A model generated the notes under the pieces. It saw nothing but the letters and a program-made list of their open reading frames with translations, was not told the DNA's origin and did no database searches. Positions 10,476 to 32,625 of a stretch of DNA of 32,625 bases are shown in pieces. Each line of letters opens with the position of its first letter. Position 1 is the stretch's first letter. Location of the stretch: IMG/VR virus record IMGVR_UViG_3300037851_000399, positions 1 to 32,625 of that record, one strand, 5' to 3'. The position numbers and the translations under genes were made by a program. Source of the DNA: a virus.

Positions 10476-10592
10476 TAAACAATGGGCAAGCGGTGAGAAC
10501 TGCAAGGTACGTGGCCGGCAATTGAGAATAGGCAAAAGAGGCGCGGCAGATAGCGGACGGCCTGAAAGCCCATAAAATTAACGGAGGACAAT

Positions 10593-14758: not shown

Positions 14759-15127
14759 ATGATCAATAAAAAAAAGGCCGAGGAGAGGATGATAATAACG
14801 GTGGGATTTGATAGGGTGGAGGAGGGCAAAGAGCTCCTGCAAACATTCCTCGTGGCCGCGCTGGCTGTGGATATGGAATGGGAGGATGGGACAAAAGAGG
14901 TCGCCGTCCTGCGCGGGCGCGTGCCGGTCAATCCCAGCTCGGAATTAAAAAAGCTGGTCGGCAAAAAATGGAAGCCGGATGAAATGATAAAGCTCGAAAA
15001 ATTTGGAGGTGAAACGCTGAAACAATTGCTCGATAATTTTTGGAAAGGCATTGAATTAATTACAGAAAAAAAGAAGTTATATGGACGAAGTTTCAAAGGA
15101 TTTAAACTTACGAAAAAAACAGAATGA
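14759..15127 (+). CDS. Hypothetical protein (122 aa).
   Basis: In-frame ATG at 14759 (the track uses a GTG at 14717). Protein-like composition. Confidence 0.5.
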   Translation: MINKKKAEERMIITVGFDRVEEGKELLQTFLVAALAVDMEWEDGTKEVAVLRGRVPVNPSSELKKLVGKKWKPDEMIKLEKFGGETLKQLLDNFWKGIELITEKKKLYGRSFKGFKLTKKTE

Positions 15128-15287
15128 CCTGTTTGTTATTTGTCCGGTCTGCGGGCAAAGCATCTTATACGAACGCGCTGGCGAACGCCGGCCGCATTTT
15201 GCCGACATAGACGAAAAACATTGCCGGACATATTGTTCGGAATGCGGAACCGGACTAAGGATTGACAAAACAAAAATAAAAAAATAA
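15081..15287 (+). CDS. Small zinc-ribbon protein (68 aa).
   Basis: CPVCGQ…CSECG, four Cys. Confidence 0.5.
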   Translation: MDEVSKDLNLRKKQNDLFVICPVCGQSILYERAGERRPHFADIDEKHCRTYCSECGTGLRIDKTKIKK

Positions 15288-15304
15288 AAGCATATCCTCT
15301 TGGC

Positions 15305-15339
15305 AAGGGGGCGCTGGATTTCCGCGCCTTTTTGTTTTG
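15305..15339 (+). terminator. Rho-independent terminator.
   Basis: GGCGC (15310..15314) / GCGCC (15324..15328), followed by TTTTTGTTTTG. Confidence 0.6.
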
Positions 15340-15377
15340 TGTTATTATTAAGACATAGATAATAACATCCAATTTTT

Positions 15378-17522: not shown

Positions 17523-17548
17523 ATTAAGCAGAAAATTAATTGACCAAT

Positions 17549-18607
17549 ATGCAAAACGAAAAAAGGGATTTCAAGAGCGTGTTGACCTTAAATTGCAAGG
17601 TTAACGAAATAAAGACAGACGGCGCCGGAATGATTGAGGCGTACGTTTCAATATTTAATAATATCGATAGCTACGGTGATATTATTGCGCCCGGCGCATT
17701 TGCCGAGAGCATCGGTAAGAAACTTCCTAAGGTCGTATGGAGCCACGATTGGGAAAAGCCGATCGGCAAGACGTTAGTCGCTCGCGAGGACAATAAAGGA
17801 TTGTATGTAAAAGCCCAGCTCCTGCTTTCGATAGACGATGGTCGCAAGGCATACGAACTTATAAAAGAGGGCATCATTGATGAATTTTCAATTGGATTTC
17901 GCGTGCAGGACTGGGAGATGCAGGGTGAAAACCGCGTGATAAAAAAAGTAAAGCTGTACGAATGGTCGCCAGTCTTAGCCGGAGCCAATCCGGCCACGGA
18001 GCTGGTATCAATCAAGGGAGAGGATATCGATGAGGATTTTGATGCGGACAAGGGTGAGGACGCTGGAAAGGCCTCCGATGGGCAAGGCGACGAAAACAAA
18101 GCGATAAAAGACGAAAGTAAAACCGGTGGGGATGGCATGGTGGAGCTGAAACTATGGGACGAAACCGATAATGAAATCGCTTATAGGGTCAAGGATCCTG
18201 CGCTATTTCAAGATGGGAGCTTCCGGACGATACAGATAAAAAAGGACAAACCGCGCGTAAACGGAATCGTCGGTAAACTAAAGGATGAGGACACGATGAC
18301 GCTCCAATCGCTCCGCTTTCCTAAAGAGGACGGCTGGACAATGGACGATGCAAAGCAGTGGGTAGAAGATCATCCGGACATAAAGATTGGGGACGAAAAG
18401 ACCGGAATCACAAGCGACGAAGCCAAGGAATTAATATCAAAAATCGATGCGCTTATTGCGGCACTACAACCTCTAAAAGAACTGGCGGAAAAAGCCGCCG
18501 GCGAGGGGATAAAAGTCGATGCAAAAGCCGGAGCCACGCTCCGTCTGCGCGCGGCCGCTAAGGAAATCGATAAAAAGGCGGAGATGATACTTCGCCTGAC
18601 AAAATAA
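17549..18607 (+). CDS. HK97-family prohead protease with an acidic/scaffold-like C-terminal half.
   Basis: NNIDSYGDIIAPGAF…WSHDW…FSIGF motifs. The ATG at 17549 is the likely start. Confidence 0.8.
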   Translation: MQNEKRDFKSVLTLNCKVNEIKTDGAGMIEAYVSIFNNIDSYGDIIAPGAFAESIGKKLPKVVWSHDWEKPIGKTLVAREDNKGLYVKAQLLLSIDDGRKAYELIKEGIIDEFSIGFRVQDWEMQGENRVIKKVKLYEWSPVLAGANPATELVSIKGEDIDEDFDADKGEDAGKASDGQGDENKAIKDESKTGGDGMVELKLWDETDNEIAYRVKDPALFQDGSFRTIQIKKDKPRVNGIVGKLKDEDTMTLQSLRFPKEDGWTMDDAKQWVEDHPDIKIGDEKTGITSDEAKELISKIDALIAALQPLKELAEKAAGEGIKVDAKAGATLRLRAAAKEIDKKAEMILRLTK

Positions 18608-18621
18608 TTAAAAACATTCTT

Positions 18622-19671
18622 ATGGACAACGAAAAAAAGGAGCTGACAATGGATGAGTTAAAATCCACCATTACAGCTACGCTTGAGGAATCTCCTCTCG
18701 CAAAAAAGATGGCCGATATTGAGAAAGGCCTTTCCGCGCTTCAATCCGTCCCGACCGACAAAAAAGCGGCCGAGATAGAAGTTGCCGCAAAATTCGTCAA
18801 GGATTTGTGCGATGGCAAACTCGAATCCGAAAGAAAGACAATCACAACCGGCTCAGGTTCATTCGGATATACCGTTCCTACGGAATTGGAATCATCCGTT
18901 CATGAGGCCAAGGATAAATTGGCCAAGATCCGCGCGAATGCGTTTGTATTCAAAATGGACGGTAAATACCAGCTTCCGGTCGAGGGTACCGGCGTGACCG
19001 CCTATTGGGTGACCACGGAAGCCGATAGCGATATCACCGAAAGCAATCCGACCGTTGGGAAAAAGGATTTGGATGACCAATATCTGGCCAGCCGCGTCCG
19101 CATTCCTTACAAACTGCTTCAGACCTCTGCGATCAATATCGTGGAATTTGTGAGCCGTTTATCAGCGCGCGCCTTGGTGAGCGCTGAGGAAACCGCGTTC
19201 GTGGGCGGCGACGGTTCAGGAAAGCCGACTGGCATCAGACAGGCCAGCATTACAGCTGTGCCACAAGCCGGCGCGAACCTTGCTTACGATGACCTCGTGA
19301 ATTTGTATTATGCGGTGCCGGAACAGTATCGCGTGAATGGCAAGTGGTTATTCTCTACTGCGGCCTTGAAGTTGGCCCGCAAGCTAAAGGACACCATCAG
19401 CTTGCCGATATTCAACGTCACGGACAATTCAATCTTTGGCAAGGAAGTATTGGAATGCACCGACATTCCTGAAAACTTGGGATCAGGTGCTAACGAAACC
19501 GAAATATACTTCGGCGACCTGAAAGAATATTGGATCAAGGACGGCCAAACAATGTTAGCCGAAGCAAAATCGGTAACAGGCCGCTTGCAGATTGACCTCT
19601 TTATGTATCAGAGCGTCGACGGCGTCGTGGTAAATACAGAAGCGTTCCGGAAAGGCACGGGAATAAAATAA
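18622..19671 (+). CDS. Major capsid protein, HK97 fold.
   Basis: …AYWVTTEADS…RIPYKLLQTS…AEETAFVGGDGSGKPTGI… is typical of the Phage_capsid family. It follows the protease gene. Confidence 0.85.
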   Translation: MDNEKKELTMDELKSTITATLEESPLAKKMADIEKGLSALQSVPTDKKAAEIEVAAKFVKDLCDGKLESERKTITTGSGSFGYTVPTELESSVHEAKDKLAKIRANAFVFKMDGKYQLPVEGTGVTAYWVTTEADSDITESNPTVGKKDLDDQYLASRVRIPYKLLQTSAINIVEFVSRLSARALVSAEETAFVGGDGSGKPTGIRQASITAVPQAGANLAYDDLVNLYYAVPEQYRVNGKWLFSTAALKLARKLKDTISLPIFNVTDNSIFGKEVLECTDIPENLGSGANETEIYFGDLKEYWIKDGQTMLAEAKSVTGRLQIDLFMYQSVDGVVVNTEAFRKGTGIK

Positions 19672-19697
19672 CTTGACACTCGTTAGGCAATGAGAGA

Positions 19698-19732
19698 ATA
19701 GTGAGAATAAGACAATTAATTATTCTCACTAT
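19698..19732. repeat. Perfect 13-bp inverted repeat (hairpin) immediately after the capsid gene.
   Basis: ATAGTGAGAATAA (19698..19710) / TTATTCTCACTAT (19720..19732) with a 9-nt loop. No T-run follows. A TTGACA lies at 19673. Confidence 0.7.
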
Positions 19733-19745
19733 GACTCAGTGCCGA

Positions 19746-20292
19746 ATGAAAAAAACAAAATAAATGCCTGCATTGTAAAAAAAGATTTAATCCGTGGCAT
19801 TCTCATCCCGATGCAGGATTTTGTTCTAATAATTGCAAGCAATTAGCCCGCCGGCGTCGGATTAAAAAAGTTTGTGAATTTTGTGGAAAAAATTTTGAAG
19901 CACTAAAATGTGAAAAAAAAGCAAGATTCTGTTCTCGAAAATGTAGGGCAAGAGCATGGTCAAAATACTTTCGCGGCGAGAACGTTCCTTGGTATAAGGG
20001 TGGAAAATGGATAAGACCGGACGGATATGTAATATTAAACATTGGTGGTCGGGAAATTTTAGAACACCGTTATGTAGTCGAGCAGAATCTTGGCCGGAGA
20101 TTAAAAGAAACGGAACATATCCACCATGTCAACGGAATAAAAACCGACAACCGTATTGAAAATTTGAAAATAATGACTAACTCTGAACATATCAAAGCAT
20201 CATGGGCGGAGGGACATTATAAAAATCGCAAAACTTATGCCAGAAAAAAAACTGCGCGATCACATGGCGCCGGAAGCCGGAAAACTTTATGA
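19746..20292 (+). CDS. Second HNH endonuclease with N-terminal duplicated CxxC…FCSxxC zinc motifs. It has no start codon in its own frame, and the only upstream ATG (19746) is +1 out of frame across an A7 run.
   Basis: An open frame of 180 codons runs 19750..20292 and contains EHIHHVNGIKTDNRIENLKIMTNSEH. The ORF track misses it because the only in-frame ATG/GTG/TTG codons are a TTG and an ATG about 40 codons before the stop, too late to encode the HNH domain. Confidence 0.7.
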
Positions 20293-20800
20293 TAGCGACG
20301 ATGTGATATTTGACCTCACGGAGTTTTTGAAAATATTAAAAACACAAGTAGAGGCAGATGGAATAAAGGTGGACGCGGACGTTTCTGTCGCAGTCGATAA
20401 CGTGGGCCTAAAAAATACGCTGGACGAACAGATAAATCCAGCAACGGAAGAAAAACAAGACGAATCGATAGGACTGTCCGGCAAGACACTTCATGAGGAT
20501 TTTGGTGAGGCGGCCGTTCCGCCATCGACGGAATCGACGCTTGCCAGCATTATTGTTCCGGTAGGAAAAAAAATAAGATTAAGGGGCGTACACGCTGAGG
20601 GTGACGATGACGGAATATTCAGGATATATGTTAACGCGCAAAAAAAATGGCAAGCGCGGAACGCTTGGACAAACAGAAATGTAAATTTTATAATTGAGTT
20701 AGAGGCGGTCGCCGGCGATACGATTTATTTAAAAGCGTATAATCCAAAAGGGTCAGTTAAAAATTATTCAGGAAGCATCTATGGATACGAAATTGGATAA
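20237..20800 (+). CDS. Structural accessory protein A (beta-sandwich C-terminal domain), paralogue of 20994..21587.
   Basis: Shared motifs are INPATEEKQDE, GKKIRLRGVHAEG and VAGDTIYL. The start is the ATG at 20237 or the one at 20264. Confidence 0.6.
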   Translation: MPEKKLRDHMAPEAGKLYDSDDVIFDLTEFLKILKTQVEADGIKVDADVSVAVDNVGLKNTLDEQINPATEEKQDESIGLSGKTLHEDFGEAAVPPSTESTLASIIVPVGKKIRLRGVHAEGDDDGIFRIYVNAQKKWQARNAWTNRNVNFIIELEAVAGDTIYLKAYNPKGSVKNYSGSIYGYEIG

Positions 20801-20981
20801 GGAAATCACAATCCTTGAACTTGGGGCCAAGCTCGATAGCCAAGAACATTCCCTTAAAGTGGCGATGGCCGAGCAGTTAAAACACCAAAAAAGAATTGCA
20901 GAACTTAGCGAAACGATTGTGGCGCTGAAAACAAAAATCGAGGAAACAAAAACAGAAATACAAAAAAGCTCTAATAATTAA
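20781..20981 (+). CDS. Small coiled-coil protein (66 aa).
   Basis: Heptad-like charged sequence. Its start overlaps the upstream stop. Confidence 0.45.
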   Translation: MDTKLDKEITILELGAKLDSQEHSLKVAMAEQLKHQKRIAELSETIVALKTKIEETKTEIQKSSNN

Positions 20982-20993
20982 GATAAAAATCAT

Positions 20994-21587
20994 ATGTCAG
21001 ATTTCAATTCGTCCTTACCAATAAGGACAGAAACAAACGGCGACGTAAAAGCTGGATTGCTTAACGATGCCGACGTAAGAATCAATCCCGCAACGGAGGA
21101 TAAACAGGACAGCGCGATAACTGAATTACAGACCATAAAAAGCAATCAAACTGACGGCTCGCAAGTTTCAAAAATAACGGACGGAACGGATGAGCTCGCG
21201 GTTAATGGTGACGGTTCCATTAATGTCAATATAGTAGACGCGGCCGTAGGCGACGATATCAATGTTTATGGAACTGCCAGCGCCGGCGTTCCCGGTACAC
21301 CGACCACGGTCGTGGATTATACGGTGAACACCGGAAAGACGTTGAAACTTAATGGCGTCCATGCCACCGGATCCGGCAAGATAAAAGTAGAGATAAAGGC
21401 CGGCACGCCGAGCTCAGAAACTACAAGAGCGGTAGGATTCAGCTCGACAGCCAATCCGAACATCGATATTACATTCCCGACACCGTTGGAAGTGGTGGCA
21501 GGCGATAAAGTACTGGTCATTATTACGAATAAAGACACGGCCAATCAGGACTTGTACGCTAACATTTCCGGCGAGGAAGTCGCTTAA
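20994..21587 (+). CDS. Structural accessory protein B, paralogue of 20237..20800.
   Basis: INPATEDKQDS, GKTLKLNGVHATG and VAGDKVLV. Confidence 0.6.
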   Translation: MSDFNSSLPIRTETNGDVKAGLLNDADVRINPATEDKQDSAITELQTIKSNQTDGSQVSKITDGTDELAVNGDGSINVNIVDAAVGDDINVYGTASAGVPGTPTTVVDYTVNTGKTLKLNGVHATGSGKIKVEIKAGTPSSETTRAVGFSSTANPNIDITFPTPLEVVAGDKVLVIITNKDTANQDLYANISGEEVA

Positions 21588-21602
21588 AAAGTAATCTTTT
21601 TA

Positions 21603-21626
21603 CTCTCGCTCTTTATGGAGCGAGGG
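21603..21626. repeat. Intergenic hairpin.
   Basis: CTCTCGCTC/GAGCGAGGG, a 9-bp stem including one G-U pair, with a 6-nt loop. No T-run. Confidence 0.5.
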
Positions 21627-21640
21627 ATAAAACGATAACT

Positions 21641-22477
21641 ATGTCCGACATAAACAATCCAACACAAGAAGTATCACTACACGAAAACGATAGTGGCAAT
21701 CCGCTTTCTGTTTTTAATAACGATAACAAGCTAAGGTTAGAGGTGCTTTCCGTTGACGAGTATATTGAAATTGCTCACGGACATATTGCCGATAGGTCTG
21801 CTCTTCACAGGTCTGCTTATTTGCCGTCAGGCACTACAACAGAGCAAAGTATATGGGGCGAGGGCGGAATTTATTCATTTCCAGCGTCGGCAACGATTAT
21901 GTCGGTATCAAGTAGCTCAGCAAACGACACTTCTGCTGGAACTGGGGCGAGAACGCTTTTGGTTCAGGGACTTAATGCCAGCTACGCAGAGATACAGGAG
22001 GTAGTTTCATTAAATGGACAGACAGGGGTAAGCACAATCAATTCTTTTTTGCGTATTAACTCCATTTGTGTTTTAACTGCCGGAAGCGGTGGCGTGAACG
22101 CTGGAAATATCTATGTCGGAACTGGAACGATTACAGGCGGGAAACCTGCCAATGTTTATCGCGTGGCTTTGGCTGGCAATGGTTGTGGCGAGGGGGCAGG
22201 ATATTGCGTGCCAGCAGGCAAGACGCTTTTTTTAAGAACTTTGTATATGTATTCTGGCGGTTCAAAAGAGGCAAGTTTGCGACTTTTCATAAGACCTTAT
22301 GAGATGAGTTGGCAATTAAAAGACCGCTTATCAATAATTGGTTCGTCATTTTCTCACACTTTTGGTGTTTGGCGAGCCGTGCCTGAAAAAACAGATATTG
22401 ATTATCGCTGTCAGTTATCCGTAGGAACAGCCGAAGTTGGCGGTGGGATAGATGCTATTTTAATAAACAATTCCTAA
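21641..22477 (+). CDS. Structural accessory protein C (278 aa), with a related C-terminal domain.
   Basis: AGKTLFLRTLYMYSGG resembles the GKTLKLNGVHATGSG segment of protein B. Confidence 0.55.
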   Translation: MSDINNPTQEVSLHENDSGNPLSVFNNDNKLRLEVLSVDEYIEIAHGHIADRSALHRSAYLPSGTTTEQSIWGEGGIYSFPASATIMSVSSSSANDTSAGTGARTLLVQGLNASYAEIQEVVSLNGQTGVSTINSFLRINSICVLTAGSGGVNAGNIYVGTGTITGGKPANVYRVALAGNGCGEGAGYCVPAGKTLFLRTLYMYSGGSKEASLRLFIRPYEMSWQLKDRLSIIGSSFSHTFGVWRAVPEKTDIDYRCQLSVGTAEVGGGIDAILINNS

Positions 22478-22478
22478 T

Positions 22479-22712
22479 ATGACGCTACAAGAAAAATTAA
22501 ATGAAATATCCGCTTTTGAAAATTATGTAATGCATAGCTTATTTTGTAAGTCATACGATAATGACGGCAGTGTTTGGAAGTGGCTTGAAAATAAAGGCGA
22601 TGGCACGGCAGACAGGAAAGAGCTGTTTGTGTGGTTTGCCGATGGGCAAGAAGTTGTCCAGCTTCTACAAAAAGAGATAGGCGGGAGCATTAAAGTCAAT
22701 AATCCAATTTAG
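22479..22712 (+). CDS. Hypothetical protein (77 aa).
   Basis: Tightly packed ATG ORF. Confidence 0.45.
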   Translation: MTLQEKLNEISAFENYVMHSLFCKSYDNDGSVWKWLENKGDGTADRKELFVWFADGQEVVQLLQKEIGGSIKVNNPI

Positions 22713-22717
22713 AATCT

Positions 22718-23002
22718 ATGAAAATGATCGTAGTAAAAGTAAAAAATGGATTTGAGGCATATGTGGCCGGCGACATAGCCGGATTCGAAGAGGATAGGGC
22801 CGTCGAGCTTATAGGCAAGGGAATCGTCGAGGAGATTGGCCATGCTGAGAGTGAAAGAGAAAAAGAGGAACACGAAAATTGGAGGAATAAAATTAAGAAG
22901 CCGGCTAAACCGGCTGATTATATTTGTGCTATATGCGGACAAAAAAATATAACAAAGGTAGGGTTATTAAGACACAAGGCAAGGATACATGGGATAAGAT
23001 AG
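22718..23002 (+). CDS. Small protein with a C-terminal C2H2-type zinc finger pattern.
   Basis: YICAICGQKNITKVGLLRHKARIH fits C-x2-C-x12-H-x4-H. Confidence 0.5.
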   Translation: MKMIVVKVKNGFEAYVAGDIAGFEEDRAVELIGKGIVEEIGHAESEREKEEHENWRNKIKKPAKPADYICAICGQKNITKVGLLRHKARIHGIR

Positions 23003-23928
23003 TTTTTTGCGGAAATTTCGAACCACCACATAGCACGGAGAATGATTATCGGAAGTCGTTTGAATCGCTGGGGATCCGCGTGATTCCTATTCAGGAAAAC
23101 AAACTGCATGAGGAAACCTCGCCGAGTCAGATTGCCGAGCTCGCACAAGGCGCGCTTTTTGTTTTATATACGCGGACATGGACTGACATGGGCAAGATTT
23201 GGCAAAAAACATTAGCTGAACTTCGCCGGATAAACGTTCCGACTGTAAGTGTCCATCTTGATTTATATTTTGGGTTGGCACGTGGCAAGGACTTGGAAAA
23301 GGATCCATTTTTTCAAAGCGATTTCGTATTCTCAGCTGATGGAGGACATCAAAAAGAATTCAAGGCGCATGGGATCAATCATTTCTTTCTACCTCCGGCC
23401 ATCCTAAAGGACAGCTGTTATCGGGGAAAATTTATCCCCGAACAGAATCATAAGGTGATCTTTGTGGGCTCGTATAATTATCATAAGGAATGGGATTACC
23501 GGCCAAAACTTATAAATTGGTTGACCGAAACGTATGGCAAGGACTTCCGGCTTTACGGCGCGCGCGAGAGCGTACGCGGGGACGCGCTGAATAACTTATA
23601 TGAGAGCGCCGAAGTAGTAGTGGGTGATAGCACATGGAGCGAGAATTATTGGAGCGATCGGATACCGGAAACGCTTGGCCGAGGGGGATTCCTTATACAT
23701 CCGGGCGTGTCGGGATTAGAGAATCAATTTATACCATATAAGCATTTTATTCCTTACATGCCGGGTGATTTTGAATCGCTGAAAGAAATCATAGATTACT
23801 ACGCCGAGCATAAAATAGAGCGCGATGCGATCCGCCATGCGGCCGCCGAACACGTAAAGAAAAATCATACCTACGAAAACCGCGTCAATGAGATGATGGC
23901 GACGCTAAAAAAAGAGGGCGCAATATGA
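22924..23928 (+). CDS. Glycosyltransferase, CgeB / Glyco_trans_1_2-like.
   Basis: The C-terminal region …IPETLGRGGFLIHP…LKEIIDYYAEHKIERDAIRHAAAEHVKKNHTYENRV resembles the CgeB family. The exact start is uncertain because it overlaps the upstream ORF. Confidence 0.6.
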   Translation: MCYMRTKKYNKGRVIKTQGKDTWDKIVFCGNFEPPHSTENDYRKSFESLGIRVIPIQENKLHEETSPSQIAELAQGALFVLYTRTWTDMGKIWQKTLAELRRINVPTVSVHLDLYFGLARGKDLEKDPFFQSDFVFSADGGHQKEFKAHGINHFFLPPAILKDSCYRGKFIPEQNHKVIFVGSYNYHKEWDYRPKLINWLTETYGKDFRLYGARESVRGDALNNLYESAEVVVGDSTWSENYWSDRIPETLGRGGFLIHPGVSGLENQFIPYKHFIPYMPGDFESLKEIIDYYAEHKIERDAIRHAAAEHVKKNHTYENRVNEMMATLKKEGAI

Positions 23929-24965
23929 AAAATGAATTGCTGGAAAAAATAAAAAAAGAGGGTGGATATCAGGACGTAGAAATCGGCGGAATCAAGGAAT
24001 GGAACGGCTGGCGAAACTGCGACGATCGGTGGGACGTGATAAAGCCGGCGCTTTCCGGAGCCAAAACAATGCTTGACTTCGGGTCGCATTACGGCTTTTT
24101 TTCTTTGCGCGCGGCGCGTGAGCTGGGGATAGCCGTGCTTTCAATCGAGGGTGGTGAGGCCCGGGCCGAAATACAGCAAGACGTCCTGCGTGAGAATAAC
24201 GAAAAGCGTGTGGCATTATGCCGCCGGCAGATGGGCCTACCGGATTGGATAGGACTGCTACGATCCTGCGAGGGCATCGATGCGATTTTGGCGCTTTCTG
24301 TCATGCATTACTTTTCGCCGGCTGAACTGATAAGCATGCTGTGGATATTCTCGCAGATATCGCCTGTTTTGGTAGTGGAATGGCCACGGCCGGAGGAGAA
24401 TGCGCCAAACGCCAATTGGACGCGGGAAATCGGCGATTTGAGCGATAAACTGGCTATGTTTTATGAGGACATCCAAAAGATAGCCGAGAAGCCGGGCGCC
24501 AAGCCGGGATCAATGCGGACGATTTACAGGGCAAGCAATAAAAAGATATTTAGAAACGCGGCCGGAAGCTACCTGACATTTAAGAACCGGACACGAAAAC
24601 ATGCGCTGGCGAATTTCGGTGGGAAATGGTGCCTCGATATGCAGATGCCGGGGGCGTGGAAGCCGGGAATCAATCTACAGACGATGCTGGAGCTTGGGCT
24701 TATTTGGCCGGACAAGGAAATGTTAGCAAAGGAAATAACAGAAAAATATTGGGCGCTTTTGAAAACCACCGCCGGGATCCTGACGGACGTCCATCCGCGC
24801 AATGTGATATTCGGCCCGGCCGGTCTTGAGATTTTGGATTTTACGGAAAGCGCTGGACAGGATATTTACGGCGTGGCGTGGGAGCAATACCGTAATATGC
24901 TCCTAACGATTGAGGAATCGCGTTTGCGCGAAATAATTTCAAACAGAATTAACGGAGGAGATTAA
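23925..24965 (+). CDS. Two-domain enzyme: SAM-methyltransferase-like N-terminus plus a kinase-like (APH/PK-fold) C-terminus.
   Basis: MLDFGSHYGFF looks like motif I. DVHPRNVIFGPAGLEILDF resembles the catalytic loop HPxN…DF of small-molecule kinases. Confidence 0.4.
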   Translation: MKNELLEKIKKEGGYQDVEIGGIKEWNGWRNCDDRWDVIKPALSGAKTMLDFGSHYGFFSLRAARELGIAVLSIEGGEARAEIQQDVLRENNEKRVALCRRQMGLPDWIGLLRSCEGIDAILALSVMHYFSPAELISMLWIFSQISPVLVVEWPRPEENAPNANWTREIGDLSDKLAMFYEDIQKIAEKPGAKPGSMRTIYRASNKKIFRNAAGSYLTFKNRTRKHALANFGGKWCLDMQMPGAWKPGINLQTMLELGLIWPDKEMLAKEITEKYWALLKTTAGILTDVHPRNVIFGPAGLEILDFTESAGQDIYGVAWEQYRNMLLTIEESRLREIISNRINGGD

Positions 24966-24966
24966 T

Positions 24967-25677
24967 ATGATAAAGAAAATTGGAAACTTTGAATGCCATC
25001 TGCGCGATGATGAATCGTTTGACGCGCGGATTTTTGATGAGGTAGTGCGCGACAATATTTACAGAATCGGCCAAGCGACAATGCCGAAGTCAGGAACGTT
25101 CACAATGATTGACGCCGGCGCACATATCGGAATAGCCAGCTTATTCGTCGCCTCGGTAGCAGACCAGCTTGGATTGGACTTCCGGATATATTCCATGGAG
25201 CCATTGAGGAAAAATTTTGAAATGCTCCGCGAGAATATCGAACGGAATGGACTGGAATCAAAAATAACAGCAATCCCATTTGCATTGGCGCCTTTCACCG
25301 GCCCGGCCAAGCTGATGCAAAATAAGGAAAATTCCGGTGGTAGTGCCATGCGACCGGACGGCGACACGGACATCGATACCAAAAGAATGGAGGACATAGC
25401 GGATGAGTTTGGCATCAAACGCGCAGATCTTTTGAAGCTGGATATTGAGGGGATGGAATACGCGAATATTTTGAGCTGGTCGGACGAAACGCTGGGAATA
25501 TTTGACCAGATCGTGGCAGAAATCCACGGATTTGTCATTCGAAGCGAGGGCTTGGGATTTTATCAATCATTTATAGAAAAATTAAATCGGCAATTCGACG
25601 TTGAGGTTTTGGGAACGCCGATGGACGGAGGAAATATATATGGAAAAAAAAGAACAGCTACCGCCGCGACTGATTAA
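24967..25677 (+). CDS. FkbM-family methyltransferase.
   Basis: MIDAGAHIGIASLF…MEPL…LLKLDIEGMEYANIL. Confidence 0.7.
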   Translation: MIKKIGNFECHLRDDESFDARIFDEVVRDNIYRIGQATMPKSGTFTMIDAGAHIGIASLFVASVADQLGLDFRIYSMEPLRKNFEMLRENIERNGLESKITAIPFALAPFTGPAKLMQNKENSGGSAMRPDGDTDIDTKRMEDIADEFGIKRADLLKLDIEGMEYANILSWSDETLGIFDQIVAEIHGFVIRSEGLGFYQSFIEKLNRQFDVEVLGTPMDGGNIYGKKRTATAATD

Positions 25678-26731
25678 GAAGTACAAAGGCGCCGGGCTGG
25701 GGATAATTGGCCGAGGCGACAATACCGGATTGGGAATTGAAACGTGGGAGATGGCGAAAAACTTTCCTGAGGCCAAAGTTTTGCTTGTGGACTTCTCCGG
25801 CCAGCCAAGAATGGATAGGCAGATTTATAAATTATTCCCGCAACGATTCCACCGGCCAATAATAATATCGGGCGCGCCAACAGATGCGGATTTAAAAGAT
25901 TTCTTCACCGGCCTAAGTTTGATATTCACAATCGAAACGCCATACAATAGCAACCTGTACCGACTGGCGCGCGAGCGCGGAATAAAAAGCGTCTTGCGTG
26001 TGAATTATGAATGGCTGGAAAACTTTGCCGATCCGCCGGATTATTATATTGCGCCAAGTTTGTGGTATTATAAAAATATACCGAAGCCAAAAAGCTATAT
26101 CCCATTTCCGGTGAATACTGACCTGATAAAATTTAAAAAGCGCGTATTTGCTAAGCGATTTCTGCATATCGCGGGTAACCGTAAGGCGGCATACGATAGA
26201 AATGGAACGGAGCTGTTGATAAAGGCAATCCCGCTCATCAAAGCCAAGGAGATTGAGATAATAATCCGGAGCCAAGTACCAATACCGGAAGTGATAAACG
26301 ATAGGCGAGTGACGGTTTTGGCTGGCGACGTGGAGAATTATTGGGAAATATGGGACACCAAGGCAGACGTGCTTGTCCTGCCTCGGCGATATGCCGGCCA
26401 AAGTTTGCCAATAAACGAAGCCATGGCCGCCGGATTGGCCATAGTTTCCTCGGACATGGGGCCACAAAATGAATTCCTGCCAACAGATTTGCTTGTACCT
26501 GTGGAAAATTTTGATGAAATAATGATAAAGAATCCGATTGAAATCGCCAATATCCGGCCGGAAACGCTGGCCGCCAAGATCGATGAGATAGCCCATAAGG
26601 ATATCCGCGCATACTCAGAGGCAAGCGGCCGAATTGCCGAGGAATGGAGCTGGAAATCGTTGAGCTTTAAATATAAGAATTTATTTACAAACCTATGCCC
26701 GCACTTTATCTCACCACTAAGGACAAAGTAA
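25640..26731 (+). CDS. Family-1 (GT4-like) glycosyltransferase.
   Basis: …VLVLPRRYAGQSLPINEAMAAGLAIVSSD… is Ex7E-type. The ATG at 25640 is the likely start. Confidence 0.7.
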   Translation: MEKKEQLPPRLIKKYKGAGLGIIGRGDNTGLGIETWEMAKNFPEAKVLLVDFSGQPRMDRQIYKLFPQRFHRPIIISGAPTDADLKDFFTGLSLIFTIETPYNSNLYRLARERGIKSVLRVNYEWLENFADPPDYYIAPSLWYYKNIPKPKSYIPFPVNTDLIKFKKRVFAKRFLHIAGNRKAAYDRNGTELLIKAIPLIKAKEIEIIIRSQVPIPEVINDRRVTVLAGDVENYWEIWDTKADVLVLPRRYAGQSLPINEAMAAGLAIVSSDMGPQNEFLPTDLLVPVENFDEIMIKNPIEIANIRPETLAAKIDEIAHKDIRAYSEASGRIAEEWSWKSLSFKYKNLFTNLCPHFISPLRTK

Positions 26732-27255
26732 AAGCCCACGCCGGTATCACCGGATCCGGCGACGATACAATCCTCGCAACACTATGCGAGCAGATTACGG
26801 CATTCATAGAGCGCTACACCGCGCGCACCGTGACGGAAGTAACCGTCGAGGATGAAATCCACGATGCCGATGATTTCAAGCATTACCTCCGCCTAAATAG
26901 ATTTCCGATCAAGGAGATGACCGCGCTGGAGGAACGCGATGATATAAGCGATACTACGTGGGCAACGATTCCGGCCGACGAATATGATGTGGAAAAAAAC
27001 AAGGGCGTGATTTATTTTGAGGACAGACGCTATGGAAAACGGAATATCAGCGCATCTTATAAAGCCGGCCTGATGACCGTGCCGCTGGATTTGGAATTGA
27101 TAGCGACAAAACTCGTGGCTAAGATTTATAATAAGCGTAAAAGTGAGGGCATTACGCGCGAACAGATGGATGCGGCAAGCGTGGATTGGGCCGGATTTTT
27201 GCAAGATGAGGATAAACTGATTCTCGATAGCTATAAACGAAGCGCACTCGTATGA
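26695..27255 (+). CDS. Head-tail connector (gp6-like / DNA-packaging QLRG-type) protein.
   Basis: N-terminus LTTKDKVKAHAGITGSGDDTILATLCEQITAFIERYT, plus its position. Confidence 0.65.
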   Translation: MPALYLTTKDKVKAHAGITGSGDDTILATLCEQITAFIERYTARTVTEVTVEDEIHDADDFKHYLRLNRFPIKEMTALEERDDISDTTWATIPADEYDVEKNKGVIYFEDRRYGKRNISASYKAGLMTVPLDLELIATKLVAKIYNKRKSEGITREQMDAASVDWAGFLQDEDKLILDSYKRSALV

Positions 27256-27569
27256 ACTTCTTTTTTGACACTACAATCACCGTGGAGCATTTGGCCGATA
27301 GCGATTCCGGCACGATAAAAGAGGCGTACACGGCCGGCACTACGATATATGGAATGATTCAGCGCATAAGCGCCGATGACGTCATGCTTTCCGATGGCGA
27401 TCCGGCCAAGAGCGCCGTGCTTTATGTGCCGTACGGAAGCGATTTGCGCGACCATGACAGAATCACGGCCGACGGAATAAAATACATAGTAAAGGGTGCG
27501 GCTAATCAGAAAGGAACCGGGCGCCGGCCACAATACATGAAAGCAATCATTGAAAAAATGAGAAGTTAA
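27252..27569 (+). CDS. Head-closure / head-tail adaptor protein.
   Basis: Size, ATGA-type coupling to the upstream gene, and position. Confidence 0.55.
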   Translation: MNFFFDTTITVEHLADSDSGTIKEAYTAGTTIYGMIQRISADDVMLSDGDPAKSAVLYVPYGSDLRDHDRITADGIKYIVKGAANQKGTGRRPQYMKAIIEKMRS

Positions 27570-27579
27570 AATCAATTTT

Positions 27580-28023
27580 ATGTATACGATTGAGGTGAAA
27601 AATTTAGAGGAACTGCAAAGGCGGTTCGCGGAATCACCTCGAATCGTCGGGGCAGAATTAGAATGGGCAACGAAAGAATCGGGTAAAGAAATCCTCAGGA
27701 CGGAAGTAAGCGAAGCTCCGCATGACACTGGCAACCTGCAACAGAGCGTGGAAATGCAATATAAGCCGATTCAAGTTATCGTGGGGCCGAGAGCAAACTA
27801 TGCTCTGGCCATAGAAAAAGGGACAAGACCGCACAAGGTATCGGCGACAGCATTGACCGGATGGGCGCGCCGGCACGGAATGAATCCATATCTTGTGGCC
27901 CGGGCCATAGCACGGAAAGGCACAAAGGCCAATCCATTTGTAAAGCGGACGGTGGAACAAGTCGCCGGGCCGATCAATAAATTCTTCAAAAAAGCGCTAC
28001 AAAATATAATTGGACAATTATGA
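27580..28023 (+). CDS. HK97 gp10-like tail-completion / neck protein.
   Basis: …APHDTGNLQQSV…GPRANYALAIEKGT… pattern. Confidence 0.65.
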   Translation: MYTIEVKNLEELQRRFAESPRIVGAELEWATKESGKEILRTEVSEAPHDTGNLQQSVEMQYKPIQVIVGPRANYALAIEKGTRPHKVSATALTGWARRHGMNPYLVARAIARKGTKANPFVKRTVEQVAGPINKFFKKALQNIIGQL

Positions 28024-28430
28024 CGGATAATTTTACAGCCACCAAAAACGCAGTGCTGGCAAAGCTCCAAGGACTGACAAAGCTGAAATACGTATACGCC
28101 TATGAAAAAGGTGAGAAGCCCGGCTTTCCGACATGCACGCTTTACGGATCAGAATATATTGCCGATTGGACTACGAACTTTCACGATTTGGATACGTATG
28201 TTTTTACAATCCGCGTGTATCAAGAAATGGCTACGCGCGGAGCCGAGTCCGCCGAGGCGATTATTGACAATGCGTTGATAGAACTCATACAAGCATTTCA
28301 AACGGATTATACTTTGGGAGGAAAAATTGATAAAATGTCAATAAGGGCGCGAAAGGGATGGGTGACGGCAGAAACGGAGAACCGAATCGCCGAGATCACG
28401 CTTACAACCTCGAAATTAGTGGCGATCTAA
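28020..28430 (+). CDS. Tail terminator-like protein.
   Basis: Position and size, with ATGA coupling to the upstream gene. Confidence 0.5.
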   Translation: MTDNFTATKNAVLAKLQGLTKLKYVYAYEKGEKPGFPTCTLYGSEYIADWTTNFHDLDTYVFTIRVYQEMATRGAESAEAIIDNALIELIQAFQTDYTLGGKIDKMSIRARKGWVTAETENRIAEITLTTSKLVAI

Positions 28431-28431
28431 T

Positions 28432-28560
28432 ATGGAAAAACGAATACAGAATAAAGCTGAGCGCATAGATCCGTGGGATCCGTATCCGGAGAATCATTGG
28501 CGGAAATACAAAAAGAAGAAAAATAAGAAGATAGAACATAAAAAATTAACCGGGCAATAA
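28432..28560 (+). CDS. Tiny basic ORF (42 aa). Not in the track.
   Basis: Hand translation gives MEKRIQNKAERIDPWDPYPENHWRKYKKKKNKKIEHKKLTGQ. Confidence 0.3.
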   Translation: MEKRIQNKAERIDPWDPYPENHWRKYKKKKNKKIEHKKLTGQ

Positions 28561-28573
28561 GCCCACGAAAAAT

Positions 28574-29548
28574 ATGACACAATTCATTGGCCGGCTCAGG
28601 AGAGTCGGTATCGCAAAGGAGAACGTAAAAGGAACCGGCGTCGTGCCGGCTTATTGGCTTCCGCTAACTGCGGCAGACCTGAATCCGGTGGTAGAAACGA
28701 AATTGAAAGAGGGCGCGATAGGGCGCATTGAGGATGCCTACGATTCCGACGTGGTGAGCAAGCATAATAGCCCGGCGCTTGAGGGGTACCTGACGGATAA
28801 AGCCGTTGGACTTTTACTCTTGGCCGCATTGGGTCAGGTTTCGTCAGCATTAAAAGGTGGCGAGAGCGCGGTATATGAACATACATACATAATAAAAAAT
28901 GACAATGACCATCCGGCGCTCACGCTTTCATTTGCCGATCCGGTTTATGGGAAATGGCTTCAATACGCCATGCTAAACAAGCTGGATATCGAGGCGAAAG
29001 TGAATGACTACGTGCAATTTAAATCTGAATTCCTTTCAAAGCTCGAAGCTACCAAGACCGGACTCACGCCGGCGGCATCAAACGAGAACGCCTTTGTGCC
29101 TCGTCACATAACCGTAAAAATCGCCGACAACGTAGCCGGCCTTGGTGCCGCGAGCGCTGTCGCGCTTCAATCCATAAGATTGGGATTTGGCAAGAATGCC
29201 GAGGCGGTTTATACATTTGGTAGCAATGAGCCGAACACGATTGTAAATAAGGAATTCGCACTTGAGGGCGACCTCGAAGCGGTTGTGGCCGATGCAACAT
29301 GGCGCGATTTATACCTTGGCAACACCACGAAAGCTATGCAGATTGCCATTACAAGCGACGTGACAATCGGATCGGCCAGCAATCCATCAATCGTAATCAC
29401 GCTGAATTCCGTGAAATTCACTACCTACAAAGACGGCGCCGGTAACAAGGATTTGATAAAAGAACAGGTCGGCTTCAAGGTTTTGTATAACGTGTCGGAT
29501 GCCAAGGCAATCGGCGTTATTTTGACCAATGACGTCGCCAGCTACTAA
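28574..29548 (+). CDS. Major tail (tube) protein.
   Basis: 324 aa, immediately upstream of the chaperone and tape-measure genes. Confidence 0.7.
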   Translation: MTQFIGRLRRVGIAKENVKGTGVVPAYWLPLTAADLNPVVETKLKEGAIGRIEDAYDSDVVSKHNSPALEGYLTDKAVGLLLLAALGQVSSALKGGESAVYEHTYIIKNDNDHPALTLSFADPVYGKWLQYAMLNKLDIEAKVNDYVQFKSEFLSKLEATKTGLTPAASNENAFVPRHITVKIADNVAGLGAASAVALQSIRLGFGKNAEAVYTFGSNEPNTIVNKEFALEGDLEAVVADATWRDLYLGNTTKAMQIAITSDVTIGSASNPSIVITLNSVKFTTYKDGAGNKDLIKEQVGFKVLYNVSDAKAIGVILTNDVASY

Positions 29549-29550
29549 CT

Positions 29551-29898
29551 ATGAATCGAGAATTGCGGAAAATTAAACTGCCGATATCCGGATGCACGGC
29601 GCTCATTATTACATTTTGGAGCTGGGGTGAACAGCAAGAATTGGCCCGGGCGCTTTTGGGTGATACATCAATCCCCGCTGGCTCCACGGCCGAGGATATC
29701 AAGGCGGTCATGGGTAACATAAAGGCGGACAAGGGAATAGACCTGCAGAAAAAAACGCTCGAATTGGCTATTAAGGAACTGTGCGATCCTGCCGGCCAAG
29801 CCATAGACAAAAAGGAGGTCCTCGATTTGCCGCCAAAAGACGTCGAGCTGATATTCGCTGAATTGCAGAAACTCGATGAGCAAAAAAAAACTGCCTAA
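29551..29898 (+). CDS. Tail assembly chaperone (G-like).
   Basis: Located between the tube and tape-measure genes. It ends just after an A9 slippery run. Confidence 0.7.
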   Translation: MNRELRKIKLPISGCTALIITFWSWGEQQELARALLGDTSIPAGSTAEDIKAVMGNIKADKGIDLQKKTLELAIKELCDPAGQAIDKKEVLDLPPKDVELIFAELQKLDEQKKTA

Positions 29899-30095
29899 GC
29901 GAGATTGAAAAGATTTTGAGATTCAAACGGCAATTTCACAATTCGCCGGAAGCCATAACAATGATAAATACCGCGCGCATTTGCGAGCGGTATCACTGCT
30001 TGCCATCGGCTGTCCGTGCTGAAAAAGCAAGCGATATCGAAGCGCTCCTGCGCATCATAGAACTTGATGCGGAAAATAAAAATATCAAAATATGA
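29551..30095 (+). CDS. Tail assembly chaperone -1 frameshift product (GT-like).
   Basis: After the slip on A9 (29882..29890), the -1 frame is open for 68 codons (NCLSEIEKILRFKRQ…ENKNIKI) up to the TGA at 30093..30095, which overlaps the tape-measure ATG. Confidence 0.65.
29882..29890 (+). other. Slippery homopolymer (A9) for programmed -1 frameshifting.
   Basis: C AAA AAA AAA C sits 3 codons before the zero-frame stop. Confidence 0.65.
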
Positions 30096-31720
30096 ATGAG
30101 GAGCTAAACATAATTTTGAAAGCAAAAGATGAAGCCAGCAAGGTGGTTGAAGATTTGAGCAAAAAGACAGAGCAATCTTTTGCGCAGATAGCAAAAACCG
30201 TGGGAACCGCAATGACAATCGCCGGTGGAGCCATCACCGGCGTTTTGGCTTTGACGGTAAAATCGGCGGCGGAAGCTGAAAGAAAAAGGGCGCAATTTGA
30301 TGCGACATTAAAGAATGTGGAGGGGACTACGGATGACGTACGGAAAGCGCTTATCGACGCGGCAGACGCCACCACCAAGCTCGGATTTGATAATGAGGAG
30401 GCGGCGGTACGATTGGCGCAGTTTTATCAGCGTACTGGCGACGTGACAGAGGCAATCAAGCTGAATAATTTGGCCATGGATTTATCGCGAGCGAAAAATG
30501 TTGACCTTGCGACAGCCAGCCAGCTCATAACAATGGCAATGTCGGGCGCCGGCCGCGTGTTAAAGCAATACGGAATAGAAATAAAGGATTCGGCCACACC
30601 GCTCGAAGCGCTGGGGATTCTACATCAAAAGGTTGGGGGGCAAGCCGATGCCTTTGCCAAGACATACGCCGGATCAATGGAGATTCTACAAAACAGATTA
30701 GGAGATTTGCGCGAACAGATAGGTGAGGCATTTTTGCCGATGCTAACTCAGCTGGCCGGAGAGGTATCGGATATAATCACCAAGGTTCAAGAATGGGCAA
30801 AGGCGCATCCGGAACTTTTTGATAAAATCGTGCAATTCACGGCCGGAGCCGGACTTTTGGCATTGGCGCTGGGAGCTGTAGGGATGGCACTGCCTGTCAT
30901 AATTTCCGGTGTGACATTGCTCGCTGGGCCGGTAGGAATTGTAATAGCCGGAATCGGATTTCTGACTGCGGTAATGTGGGAACTTTATCAACAAGGACTT
31001 CTTACGCGTGAATTTTTATCAACACTCATAAGGACAATTGAGGAAAAAACAAACGTGATATCAATGGCAAAAGCGGCGTGGCAAGTCATAGTAAAAATGT
31101 GGAACGAAATGGTAATGCCAGCATTGCGGAATCTTTGGGAAACGTTAAAGCCATACGTGCCATATCTACAAGAATTTGGAAAGGCAATCGGAATCACGCT
31201 CGTCGCCTCGTTCAATATTTTAATAGCACTGATAAGCGGAGCCGTGCTCGGTGCGTTATTTGCCTTAACAACCGCATTGGACGGCATCGACTTTTTAATA
31301 AAAACCGTTAGAGGAGCGCTCGAATCTTTTGGCGACGGATGGAGGGCGATCGGCGAAGCGGTGGGATGGGTGGTCGGTAAACTTGAAGACTTGATTGAAG
31401 CCGCCGTCCGAGCGGCATCGGCGCTGGGGAACGTTCTAAACAAAAGCGGAGCTGGAGGAATTTTGGGAGGAATTGCAAGCGGTATTGGCGGAATAGCTCT
31501 TGGGATGATTCCAAAATTTGCCACCGGCGGAATAGTGACTCAGCCCACGCTGGCTATGGTGGGAGAGGCCGGGCCGGAGGCAATCGTTCCGCTCCGGTCA
31601 GGATTCGGCTCCGGAAATATAACCGTAAACGTAAACGGCGGATATTATTTGTCCGATGACGCCGCGCGCGACATGGCCGACAAAATTGTCGACCGCCTGA
31701 AATTACAGCGGAGAATATGA
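30092..31720 (+). CDS. Tape measure protein (542 aa).
   Basis: Helical N-terminus, central hydrophobic segments, Gly-rich C-terminus, and position. Confidence 0.8.
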   Translation: MNEELNIILKAKDEASKVVEDLSKKTEQSFAQIAKTVGTAMTIAGGAITGVLALTVKSAAEAERKRAQFDATLKNVEGTTDDVRKALIDAADATTKLGFDNEEAAVRLAQFYQRTGDVTEAIKLNNLAMDLSRAKNVDLATASQLITMAMSGAGRVLKQYGIEIKDSATPLEALGILHQKVGGQADAFAKTYAGSMEILQNRLGDLREQIGEAFLPMLTQLAGEVSDIITKVQEWAKAHPELFDKIVQFTAGAGLLALALGAVGMALPVIISGVTLLAGPVGIVIAGIGFLTAVMWELYQQGLLTREFLSTLIRTIEEKTNVISMAKAAWQVIVKMWNEMVMPALRNLWETLKPYVPYLQEFGKAIGITLVASFNILIALISGAVLGALFALTTALDGIDFLIKTVRGALESFGDGWRAIGEAVGWVVGKLEDLIEAAVRAASALGNVLNKSGAGGILGGIASGIGGIALGMIPKFATGGIVTQPTLAMVGEAGPEAIVPLRSGFGSGNITVNVNGGYYLSDDAARDMADKIVDRLKLQRRI

Positions 31721-32625
31721 TAATAAAAATCAACAGTAATGACATCACCTCGGCCGTTATCCTTGACTCATTCAGAATCGAACAGGTAATAAGCAAGGAG
31801 GCCGATAACCTAAAAATGACTCTGATTGATCCGGCGAACGCGCCGGAAATTTTGCAAGAGGTGGAAGTTAAAGACGACGATGACGATATTATTTTTGGCG
31901 GCGTGGTCGCAAGCATTTATACAAAAAATGTATCGCAGAAAATTACATACGATTTGGTTTGCAAGGATTACACGGAATTAATGGACGGCAAGTACGTGGT
32001 GGAAAGTTACGAGGATAAGACCGCCAATGAAATTATTGCCGACATTCAAAGCAAGTATTTACCGGCCGGAATCACAATCACGAATGTGGATTGCGACACG
32101 GAACTTGCTTACGTGGCATTCAATTATGAGAAGCCATCAAAATGCCTCGAACGGCTGGCCGAGCTTTGTCTCGCCGATTGGTATATTGATTACAATAAAG
32201 ATATCCATTTTTTTCTGCGCGCCGACAATCCGGCGCCGTTTGGCTTGACGGACGATAACAATAATTACGAATCGTCCTCGCTCGTGACAAAAGAGGATGC
32301 CTCGCAGATTAAAAACACCATATACGTGCGAGGCGGAGAATACAAAGGTGCGTCATATACGGAAAAACAGCTCGCAGACGGCGATCAGACAACATTCAAT
32401 CTTGCCTACAGATATTCCGGCCTCACCGTAACCGTGGACTCGGTAGCGCAAGACGTGGGCATAGATTTCTTGGATGACGAAGCAGACCATGATTGCCTAT
32501 ACAATTTTGAAATGAAAACTTTAAGATTCCGAAGCGATAACAAGCCGACCGCCGGCCAGCTCGTGGAGATCACCGGTCTGCCTTATATTCCGGTCTATAT
32601 AAAAAGCGAGGAATCGGCGAGCGTG
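31717..32625 (+). CDS. Tail-tip/baseplate protein in the Dit/Tal position, N-terminal part. It runs off the window end and continues at 2..688 (about 489 aa in total).
   Basis: The ATG at 31717 overlaps the tape-measure stop (ATGA). I translated the frame by hand and it stays open to 32625. The frame matches ORF 14..688 once the 127-bp overlap is applied. The ORF track misses it because there is no stop inside the window. Confidence 0.8.
   Translation, partial: MIIKINSNDITSAVILDSFRIEQVISKEADNLKMTLIDPANAPEILQEVEVKDDDDDIIFGGVVASIYTKNVSQKITYDLVCKDYTELMDGKYVVESYEDKTANEIIADIQSKYLPAGITITNVDCDTELAYVAFNYEKPSKCLERLAELCLADWYIDYNKDIHFFLRADNPAPFGLTDDNNNYESSSLVTKEDASQIKNTIYVRGGEYKGASYTEKQLADGDQTTFNLAYRYSGLTVTVDSVAQDVGIDFLDDEADHDCLYNFEMKTLRFRSDNKPTAGQLVEITGLPYIPVYIKSEESASV
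32499..32625. repeat. Terminal direct repeat, copy 2 (identical to 1..127).
   Basis: Exact 127-nt identity with the window start. This length is typical of a k-mer overlap on a circular contig. Confidence 0.95.

Follow-up and report, generated by a model that had tools for sequence, protein, structure and literature searches.

To our knowledge, glycosylation of the virion by phage-encoded enzymes has been demonstrated only in a few mycobacteriophages, where it alters antibody recognition, and we know of no virus particle on which a methyl-phosphate chain terminator has yet been reported. Here we describe a four-gene cassette of carbohydrate enzymes in the IMG/VR virus record IMGVR_UViG_3300037851_000399 (positions 1 to 32,625; this whole stretch of 32,625 nucleotides is called the window). 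The cassette lies between the major capsid gene and the head-tail adaptor gene, and encodes two glycosyltransferases, GTa and GTb, an FkbM-family S-adenosylmethionine (SAM) methyltransferase, and P2, a protein in which a methyltransferase is followed by a kinase-like domain. Judged by profile comparison and structure prediction, P2 is a compact homologue of the bacterial enzyme WbdD, fused and without the molecular ruler.

Several described systems resemble this locus in part. Glycosylated virion proteins have been reported for Che8, Corndog and Myrna in the account of PMC12363180, which cites Freeman 2023. In Corndog, gp35-38 comprise an O-methyltransferase and glycosyltransferases encoded in the structural operon (PMC4351075), and a 2013 description of the Cluster J mycobacteriophages lists several glycosyltransferases, a putative Ser/Thr kinase and a SAM methyltransferase among the 8-10 genes that separate the capsid gene from the head-tail connector genes (PMC3706429). 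The Asgard archaeal virus 'Fenrir' has genes for a WbdA-like glycosyltransferase and a WbdD-like methyltransferase (bioRxiv 10.1101/2021.07.29.454249). WbdD itself, which terminates O-polysaccharide chains in E. coli O9a, first phosphorylates the terminal mannose and then methylates that phosphate (PMC3482155).

The fusion protein P2 and its cassette

As a single sequence, P2 gave no Pfam match above cut-off and only weak methyltransferase matches. A word-index search returned 3 homologues, and an exhaustive profile search 785 family members, 61 of them below 1e-30. WbdD was already the best PDB match of a profile built from P2 and its three closest homologues (3e-6), and with an 84-sequence family profile the match reached 2.4e-24, as against 1.7e-7 for the next structure; the same profile aligns the kinase catalytic loop in WbdD order. 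In a first AlphaFold2 model, made from 4 sequences, residues 208-263 fell below 50 in the predicted local distance difference test (pLDDT). The 84-sequence alignment mended this and gave a model with a pLDDT of 96.9 and a predicted template modelling score of 0.94. In the Foldseek comparison with the PDB, the WbdD structures 4ax8, 4azt and 4azs came out on top (2e-14), aligned over ~380 columns across both domains.

The N-terminal part of P2 (approximately residues 1-205) is a class I SAM methyltransferase, modelled as a seven-strand Rossmann fold with pLDDT above 95. The SAM-motif residues D51, G53, G57, E75 and D119 are 92-98% conserved among the 84 members, and WbdD residues 6-214 align to the P2 family profile at 76 bits. 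In WbdD, methylation requires Y16, H132, H133 and R203, an anion pocket is lined by R31, C33, N34, Q35 and R36, and the catalytic and Mg-binding residues of the kinase are D351, N356 and D369 (PMC3482155). Alignments by hidden Markov models place Y15, H128, Y129 (His to Tyr) and R198 of P2 at the phosphate site, R30, C32 and R35 at the positions of R31, C33 and R36 in the pocket, and D288, N293 and D305 at the kinase residues. All of these save Y129 are 85-98% conserved across the 84 members, and D288, N293 and D305 94-98%. P2 ends at residue 346 after two short helices, with no coiled-coil ruler and no membrane-targeting region, and its C-terminus has no hydrophobic or amphipathic tail.

A metagenome scan with P2 returned six short loci. 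Matches in the viral structure library BFVD mostly cover the methyltransferase half of P2 alone. The only viral predicted structure that aligns past this half is K7YUZ4 from Megavirus courdo11 (401 aa, 431 columns), so that giant viruses may, judging by the predicted fold, also have a methyltransferase plus kinase-like enzyme.

The cassette consists of four co-directional plus-strand open reading frames (ORFs) that occupy 22924..26731 in the order GTa, P2, FkbM, GTb, and fills 3.8 kb of a capsid-to-adaptor gap of 7,023 bp (Table 1). GTa and P2 join in an ATGA overlap, P2 and FkbM are spaced by 1 nt, FkbM and GTb overlap by 38 nt, and GTb overlaps the adaptor gene by 37 nt. Since the genes overlap one another and the adaptor gene, we regard them as members of the late structural operon, and their tight packing leaves no room for separate regulation. 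GTa, FkbM and GTb all score above the curated cut-offs of their profiles (25 bits for PF13524, 22.7 for PF05050, 37.7 for TIGR01444 and 27 for PF13692). In these respects the original prediction, made from the sequence without database searches, was borne out: it had called a four-gene cassette between the capsid and head-tail genes, placed in the late structural operon, with two glycosyltransferases, an FkbM methyltransferase and a methyltransferase/kinase-like fusion, the last of which can now be specified as WbdD-type from the family profile, the AlphaFold2 model and Foldseek. Its proposed HPxN...DF motif in the C-terminal part of P2 stood up only in part: D288, N293 and D305 are conserved, while the His is not, and W355 of WbdD is Arg in the window's clade.

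The longest GTa ORF starts at TTG 22924; the start is probably ATG 22933, as 328-330 aa homologues span the entire 331-aa ORF. For GTb the longest ORF starts at TTG 25601, and the start is ATG 25640, which has a GGAGG ribosome-binding site ahead of it. None of the four enzymes has a transmembrane-like segment. Homologues of GTa number 1158 at E <= 1e-10. Neither its single sequence nor its profile gave anything significant in searches of PDB sequences, where GTb and FkbM had marginal matches only. In the EX7E motif of GTb the second Glu is kept (..PINEAMAAG..) and the first position is Ala, and the best PDB alignment spans this stretch.

Table 1. Features of the window, with the post-capsid hairpins and s94 equivalents of related loci.
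Feature	Position	Strand	Support or remark
s94, small conserved protein with C-terminal C2H2 zinc finger	22718..23002	+	directly upstream of GTa
GTa, CgeB-like glycosyltransferase	22933..23928	+	PF13524, 72.5 bits; phrog_28745, 8.7e-49
P2, WbdD-like methyltransferase + kinase-like fusion	23925..24965	+	346 aa
FkbM-family SAM methyltransferase	24967..25677	+	PF05050, 55.8 bits; TIGR01444, 78.2 bits
GTb, GT-B fold GT4-type glycosyltransferase	25640..26731	+	PF13692, 46.8 bits; PF00534, 28 bits
Head-tail adaptor	26695-27255	+	phrog_442, 1.3e-22; downstream anchor of the locus
ParB N-terminal domain + N6/N4 DNA methyltransferase fusion	10593-12695	+	intein inside (PF14890, residues 403-620)
Terminase large subunit	13160-14560	+	
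Portal fused to C-terminal Mu-F-like head-morphogenesis domain	15378-17522	+	portal PF04860; Mu-F-like domain weak, 21 bits
S78 prohead protease	17540-18607	+	
HK97-type major capsid protein	18622-19671	+	PF05065, 2.5e-45; upstream anchor of the locus
RNA hairpin directly after the capsid stop	19680..19749	+	-31.4 kcal/mol, z = -7.9 vs shuffles
HNH_3 endonuclease ORF	~19746-20292	+	PF13392, 42.5 bits, 181 aa after deleting one A
Block A, B, 66-aa coiled-coil ORF, C, 77-aa ORF, in this order	20237-22712	+	C: phrog_8198
Hairpins at the same place in relatives	L001 8698-8805; L002 8718-8800; L003 8467-8581; L006 6678-6760		
s94 equivalents in relatives	L001 8803-9066; L002 8798-9061; L003 8579-8830; L006 6757-7032		

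Related loci and the changing middle of the island

The three closest homologues of P2 lie on contigs of 28-33 kb (L001-L003) with the same gene order as the window, namely capsid, small protein, GTa, P2, FkbM, GTb and adaptor. Within the lineage, conservation is highest in the capsid protein (62-67% identity to the window in L001-L003 and L006). GTa, at 55-60%, is second only to it, and is followed by the terminase (51-54%), P2 (43-44%), the portal (37-39%), GTb (~35% in L001-L003, 44% in L006 and L009) and the major tail protein (33-36%). FkbM, at 28%, is detectable in L003 only.

We scanned IMG/VR with a GTa alignment, which gave 251 loci, and fetched 80 of them, on which we carried out gene calling and iterative searches ourselves. 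In 13 complete loci the genes always follow the order capsid, s94, GTa, [X], GTb, adaptor, and at least six versions of the middle part X occur at the fixed capsid-adaptor site: P2 with FkbM (the window and L001-L003), a GT2/nucleotidyltransferase fusion with P2 (L006), FkbM alone, GT2 alone, GT2 with a nitroreductase-like protein, and a small class I methyltransferase. Among the fetched islands there are 26 distinct middle proteins, most of them carbohydrate enzymes, including GT2 (7), class I methyltransferases (5), GT47-like proteins (3), an NDP-sugar (nucleoside diphosphate sugar) epimerase/dehydratase and a cytidylyltransferase. GTb was labelled in 79 of the 106 screened sequences, which include all 90 GTa carriers. 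The two glycosyltransferases are thus constant bookends around a replaceable set of enzymes, of which P2 plus FkbM is one variant. Nitroreductase-like, Fic and Clp-protease-like proteins also occur between GTa and GTb.

Wherever a fetched locus holds a full-length P2 (>=31% identity to that of the window), GTa, P2 and GTb are adjacent as far as the contig permits. Fusions were found as GTa::P2 (L007, L008), GTb::GTa (L013), an extra methyltransferase::P2 (L023) and FkbM::GTa (P0197, P0224), and in an unrelated phage with an SU10-type adaptor the triad stands directly ahead of the adaptor gene. Linked in this way by gene fusions and adjacency across the fetched loci, the cassette enzymes are best described as working together. 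In L002 a 618-aa fibre-like protein and one BppU_N-like protein are inserted inside the cassette, so that the region tolerates insertion of structural accessory genes.

The small protein s94 may be a partner of the cassette. It was found in 14 loci by jackhmmer, directly precedes GTa in most members of the lineage, and lies between the capsid gene and GTa wherever the contig holds both; in the window its 3' end and the GTa ORF share 70 nt. The protein has 83-94 aa, and its zinc finger (CxxC-x12-H-x4-H) is conserved in the alignment of five phages.

Two further arrangements were seen. Many larger viral contigs (to 197 kb, among L026-L105) carry GTa, FkbM, a protein of ~262 aa, a protein of ~221 aa and GTb, followed by a strand switch. 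On the cyanobacterial-looking contig L016 (1793-8780), a 1358-aa protein combines Methyltransf_24, a P2-like region and a GT1 domain. Next to it are genes for a GT41 (OGT-like) protein and a pilin, a hint that a cellular protein may carry capped glycans.

Possible targets of the cassette

The reading that we favour, and to which we give about an even chance, is that the cassette glycosylates virion proteins in the cytoplasm with methyl-phosphate-capped or methylated glycans, most likely while the particle is being assembled. The cassette would be expressed late as part of the structural operon, and its soluble enzymes would act in the cytoplasm, where GTa and GTb, drawing on host nucleotide sugars, would begin a short sugar chain on an acceptor protein and lengthen it. 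The kinase-like half of P2 would phosphorylate the non-reducing terminal sugar, and the WbdD-type methyltransferase half would methylate this phosphate, giving a methyl-phosphate cap at which extension stops. FkbM would add an O-methyl group as an accessory step, being one of the replaceable middle enzymes. The leading candidate for the acceptor would be the capsid protein. The analysis shows the enzyme families, the homology of P2 to WbdD with its catalytic residues retained, the place in the operon, the bookend synteny, the linkage through fusions and the lack of detectable genes for lysogeny, export or DNA hydroxymethylation; it is the acceptor, the sugar chemistry, both activities of P2 and the purpose of the cap that we infer here.

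Several observations weigh against virion proteins as the target or against the cap. The capsid and tail-tube proteins have no visible Che8-like or Ser/Thr-rich C-terminal acceptor tail, and in the capsid protein the match to the Pfam capsid profile reaches almost to the last residue (position 279/280 at residue 346 of 349). The natural substrate of WbdD is an undecaprenyl-linked O-polysaccharide, not a protein (PMC3482155). The C-terminal part of P2 is a reduced protein-kinase-like domain of ~140 aa, as compared with ~250 aa in WbdD, and equivalents of WbdD Y230 and E274 and of the conserved ATP-binding Lys were not found in P2; this domain may be inactive or have another role. In L007 and L023 the GTa-P2-GTb triad directly precedes the terminase gene, and in L013, a temperate-looking contig of 52.8 kb, it lies beside lysis and lysogeny genes: there a GT2 gene, P2, GTb::GTa (677 aa) and a GT9 heptosyltransferase-like gene (7285-12339) sit between a CHAP lysin and an M78/HTH (helix-turn-helix) repressor module. 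With the triad at other places in other phages, position alone does not settle the target, and for the majority of the remoter IMG/VR islands no surrounding structural operon is visible. Nor did a host and prophage scan of 185,579 genomes lead to a host assignment, as it returned only a 43-residue fragment in an Acidobacteriota metagenome-assembled genome (MAG); the MAG names on capsid homologues disagree (Falkowbacteria, Clostridiales, Desulfobacteraceae).

The substrate of WbdD and the surroundings of L013, a typical site of lysogenic conversion, would fit better if the target were the host envelope, that is a lipid- or wall-linked polysaccharide such as O-antigen, teichoic acid or S-layer glycan, and L013 is the locus that such a target fits best. 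A capper without a ruler would then end chains early, new sugars would be added, and superinfection would be blocked or progeny freed from debris. The P2 relatives below 27% identity, which are cellular and lie beside GT4 genes, point the same way, as does the PHROGs category of the glycosyltransferase families ('moron / host takeover'). For the window we nonetheless consider this explanation unlikely, and with it the seroconversion that the original prediction had kept as an alternative: among the scanned ORFs of the complete genome we detected no integrase, repressor, Gtr-type membrane protein or transporter, and no membrane anchor, initiating phosphoglycosyltransferase, flippase, ABC transporter or ligase. 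Moreover, the capsid-adaptor site is kept in the 13 complete loci at 35-67% protein identity, unlike a dispensable moron, and late genes that overlap the adaptor gene would leave little time to export a modified polymer. An alternative that concerns the chemistry, not the target, is that the kinase-like half of P2 is a degenerate binding or scaffold module, and that P2 and FkbM only O-methylate a glycan that stays unphosphorylated, as in O8-type termination. The domain is ~110 residues shorter than that of WbdD, no conserved ATP-site Lys or Glu was identified in it, neither the 'HPxN' His nor W355 is kept in the window's clade, and its kinase match is weak by itself (conditional E 8e-6, independent E value 1.4). 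We nevertheless hold methylation alone to be doubtful, in that the conservation of D288, N293 and D305 in so diverse a family argues for catalysis over decay, the Arg, His and Tyr that WbdD needs specifically for a phosphate acceptor are still present in the methyltransferase half, and the Cluster J phages hold a separate mini-kinase gene beside the same type of methyltransferase.

That the enzymes might decorate modified bases of the phage DNA as a protection from restriction seems very improbable. There are phage glycosyltransferases that modify DNA (Pyle et al. 2024, as cited in PMC12619734), and the genome has two DNA methyltransferase genes. Yet neither a thymidylate-synthase-like hydroxymethylase nor a TET/5mYOX protein, a 5-hydroxymethyldeoxyuridine kinase or a DNA polymerase was detected in the complete 32.5-kb genome, the closest relative of P2 is a sugar-phosphate enzyme, and the other middle enzymes of the islands act on carbohydrates (GT2, GT47-like, NDP-sugar epimerase, cytidylyltransferase).

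If virion proteins are indeed the target, purified particles would be expected to carry mass adducts in hexose-type sugar increments, together with methyl (+14 Da) and methyl phosphate (~+94 Da). Decoration of their own particles would then be a common trait of uncultured environmental phages whose genomes measure no more than ~30 kb. The glycan would be diversified by enzyme swaps between two constant glycosyltransferases, much as in bacterial O-antigen loci, and phages would have borrowed the methyl-phosphate chain ending of bacteria without its molecular ruler. A wider proposal, which is possible but which we hold to be less likely than not, is that the GTa/GTb island is a hypervariable viral counterpart of an O-antigen locus that diversifies virion glycans into 'phage serotypes', with a WbdD-type terminator in the present case. 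At least six enzyme sets occur at one site within a single lineage, and the island is spread over the 251 IMG/VR loci. Were this so, virion glycosylation would extend far past the actinobacteriophages and would gain a modification that, as far as we know, no virus particle has yet been reported to carry.

Neighbouring genes and comparison with described systems

An exact terminal direct repeat of 127 bp (1-127 = 32499-32625) shows the contig to be complete, with a genome of 32,498 bp that is circular or terminally redundant and has every long ORF on the plus strand. After the adaptor gene follow those for head closure, Neck1, tail terminator, major tail protein and tape measure. The portals of relatives are similar in length to the portal/Mu-F-like fusion of the window, and the equivalents of the ParB/methyltransferase fusion in relatives have 427-436 aa and no intein. 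Megablast of 15000-32000 against 50,697 phage records gave no match, and so no close relative among cultured phages, and a scan for promoters and terminators was near the shuffled expectation (32 vs 25.1 and 28 vs 20.9, respectively).

The part of the capsid-to-adaptor gap upstream of s94 is of a different nature. A hairpin follows the capsid gene directly, and the post-capsid hairpins of five phages (z -3.4 to -9.3) share their position, differ in sequence and have no T-tract. They may stabilise or attenuate the transcript and so lower downstream expression relative to the capsid gene. The HNH_3 homing-endonuclease ORF overlaps the start of gene A, and its ATG is put out of frame by a run of seven A residues (19749-19755); an error of sequencing, a site of frameshifting or decay to a pseudogene could each account for this. 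The paralogues A and B (6e-10) have the motif INPATE[ED]KQD in common. Homologues of C are known from freshwater and spring-water phages and from cyanomyoviruses, where some bear the annotation 'tail fiber protein'; they usually adjoin endonuclease genes, or lie between terminase and portal genes. The original prediction had linked A, B and C to the cassette and proposed co-occurrence. This link was not upheld, since neither they nor the HNH gene or the 66-aa and 77-aa ORFs have a counterpart in any related locus examined. Because the block is missing from every cassette-bearing relative, we conclude from this comparison of gene content that it is a separate mobile insertion outside the cassette.

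WbdD of E. coli O9a (PDB 4AZS, 4AZT, 4AZW, 4AX8, 4UW0) has the same domain order as P2, with the methyltransferase followed by the kinase-like domain. WbdD, however, has 708 aa, of which residues 460-708 form a coiled-coil ruler and a membrane-binding C-terminus, both absent from P2, and it works with the polymerase WbdA and with Wzm/Wzt, none of which was detected in the complete genome of the window, although components of the host might be used. P2 would offer a compact 346-aa model of WbdD-type enzymes.

A phage system with the same position and enzyme classes is that of Cluster J, as in LittleE gp15-gp21. The P2 family profile matches the methyltransferase half in gp17 (96.5 bits) and the kinase motif (D-x4-N...D) in gp16 (17.3 bits). 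By this profile evidence, Cluster J appears to carry a split and reordered WbdD-like pair at the same position, and our data suggest that this is what its long-noted kinase and methyltransferase genes are. In LittleE, a 109-kb actinobacteriophage as compared with the 32.5-kb phage of the window, two separate genes, in reverse order, encode the kinase and a methyltransferase that is fused to a glycosyltransferase, and homologues of GTa and GTb were not detected, the glycosyltransferases being from other families. The original prediction had also taken a combination of glycosyltransferase, methyltransferase and kinase-like genes for a more elaborate version of what mycobacteriophages have; Cluster J already has this set between its capsid and connector genes (PMC3706429).

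Corndog and Che8 resemble the window in having glycosyltransferases in or near the structural operon, a likeness drawn from their descriptions, and differ from it in the Che8-type acceptor regions at the C-termini of the capsid and tail-tube proteins, which are not evident in the window proteins. Fenrir is an earlier, annotation-level proposal of virus-encoded glycan synthesis with a WbdD-type terminator, in which only the methyltransferase is mentioned, with no kinase half, link to a structural operon or comparative analysis. CgeB of Bacillus subtilis, a glycosyltransferase of spore-surface maturation, belongs to the same Pfam family as GTa (PF13524); the link is at the level of the family only, and some sources label close GTa homologues 'spore maturation protein CgeB'. 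CgeB decorates a proteinaceous shell, as GTa would likewise do if virion proteins are its target. Gtr-type seroconversion modules differ from the cassette in belonging to temperate phages and in having GtrA/GtrB/GtrC or an acetyltransferase near the integrase or attachment site, while the window cassette stands in a late operon without these. With the precedents of Cluster J, Corndog and Fenrir, the kind of system is thus already known. New here are a fused WbdD homologue without a ruler, the pair of CgeB-like and GT4-type bookends, the architecture with a variable middle, and the occurrence of all this in small environmental phages.

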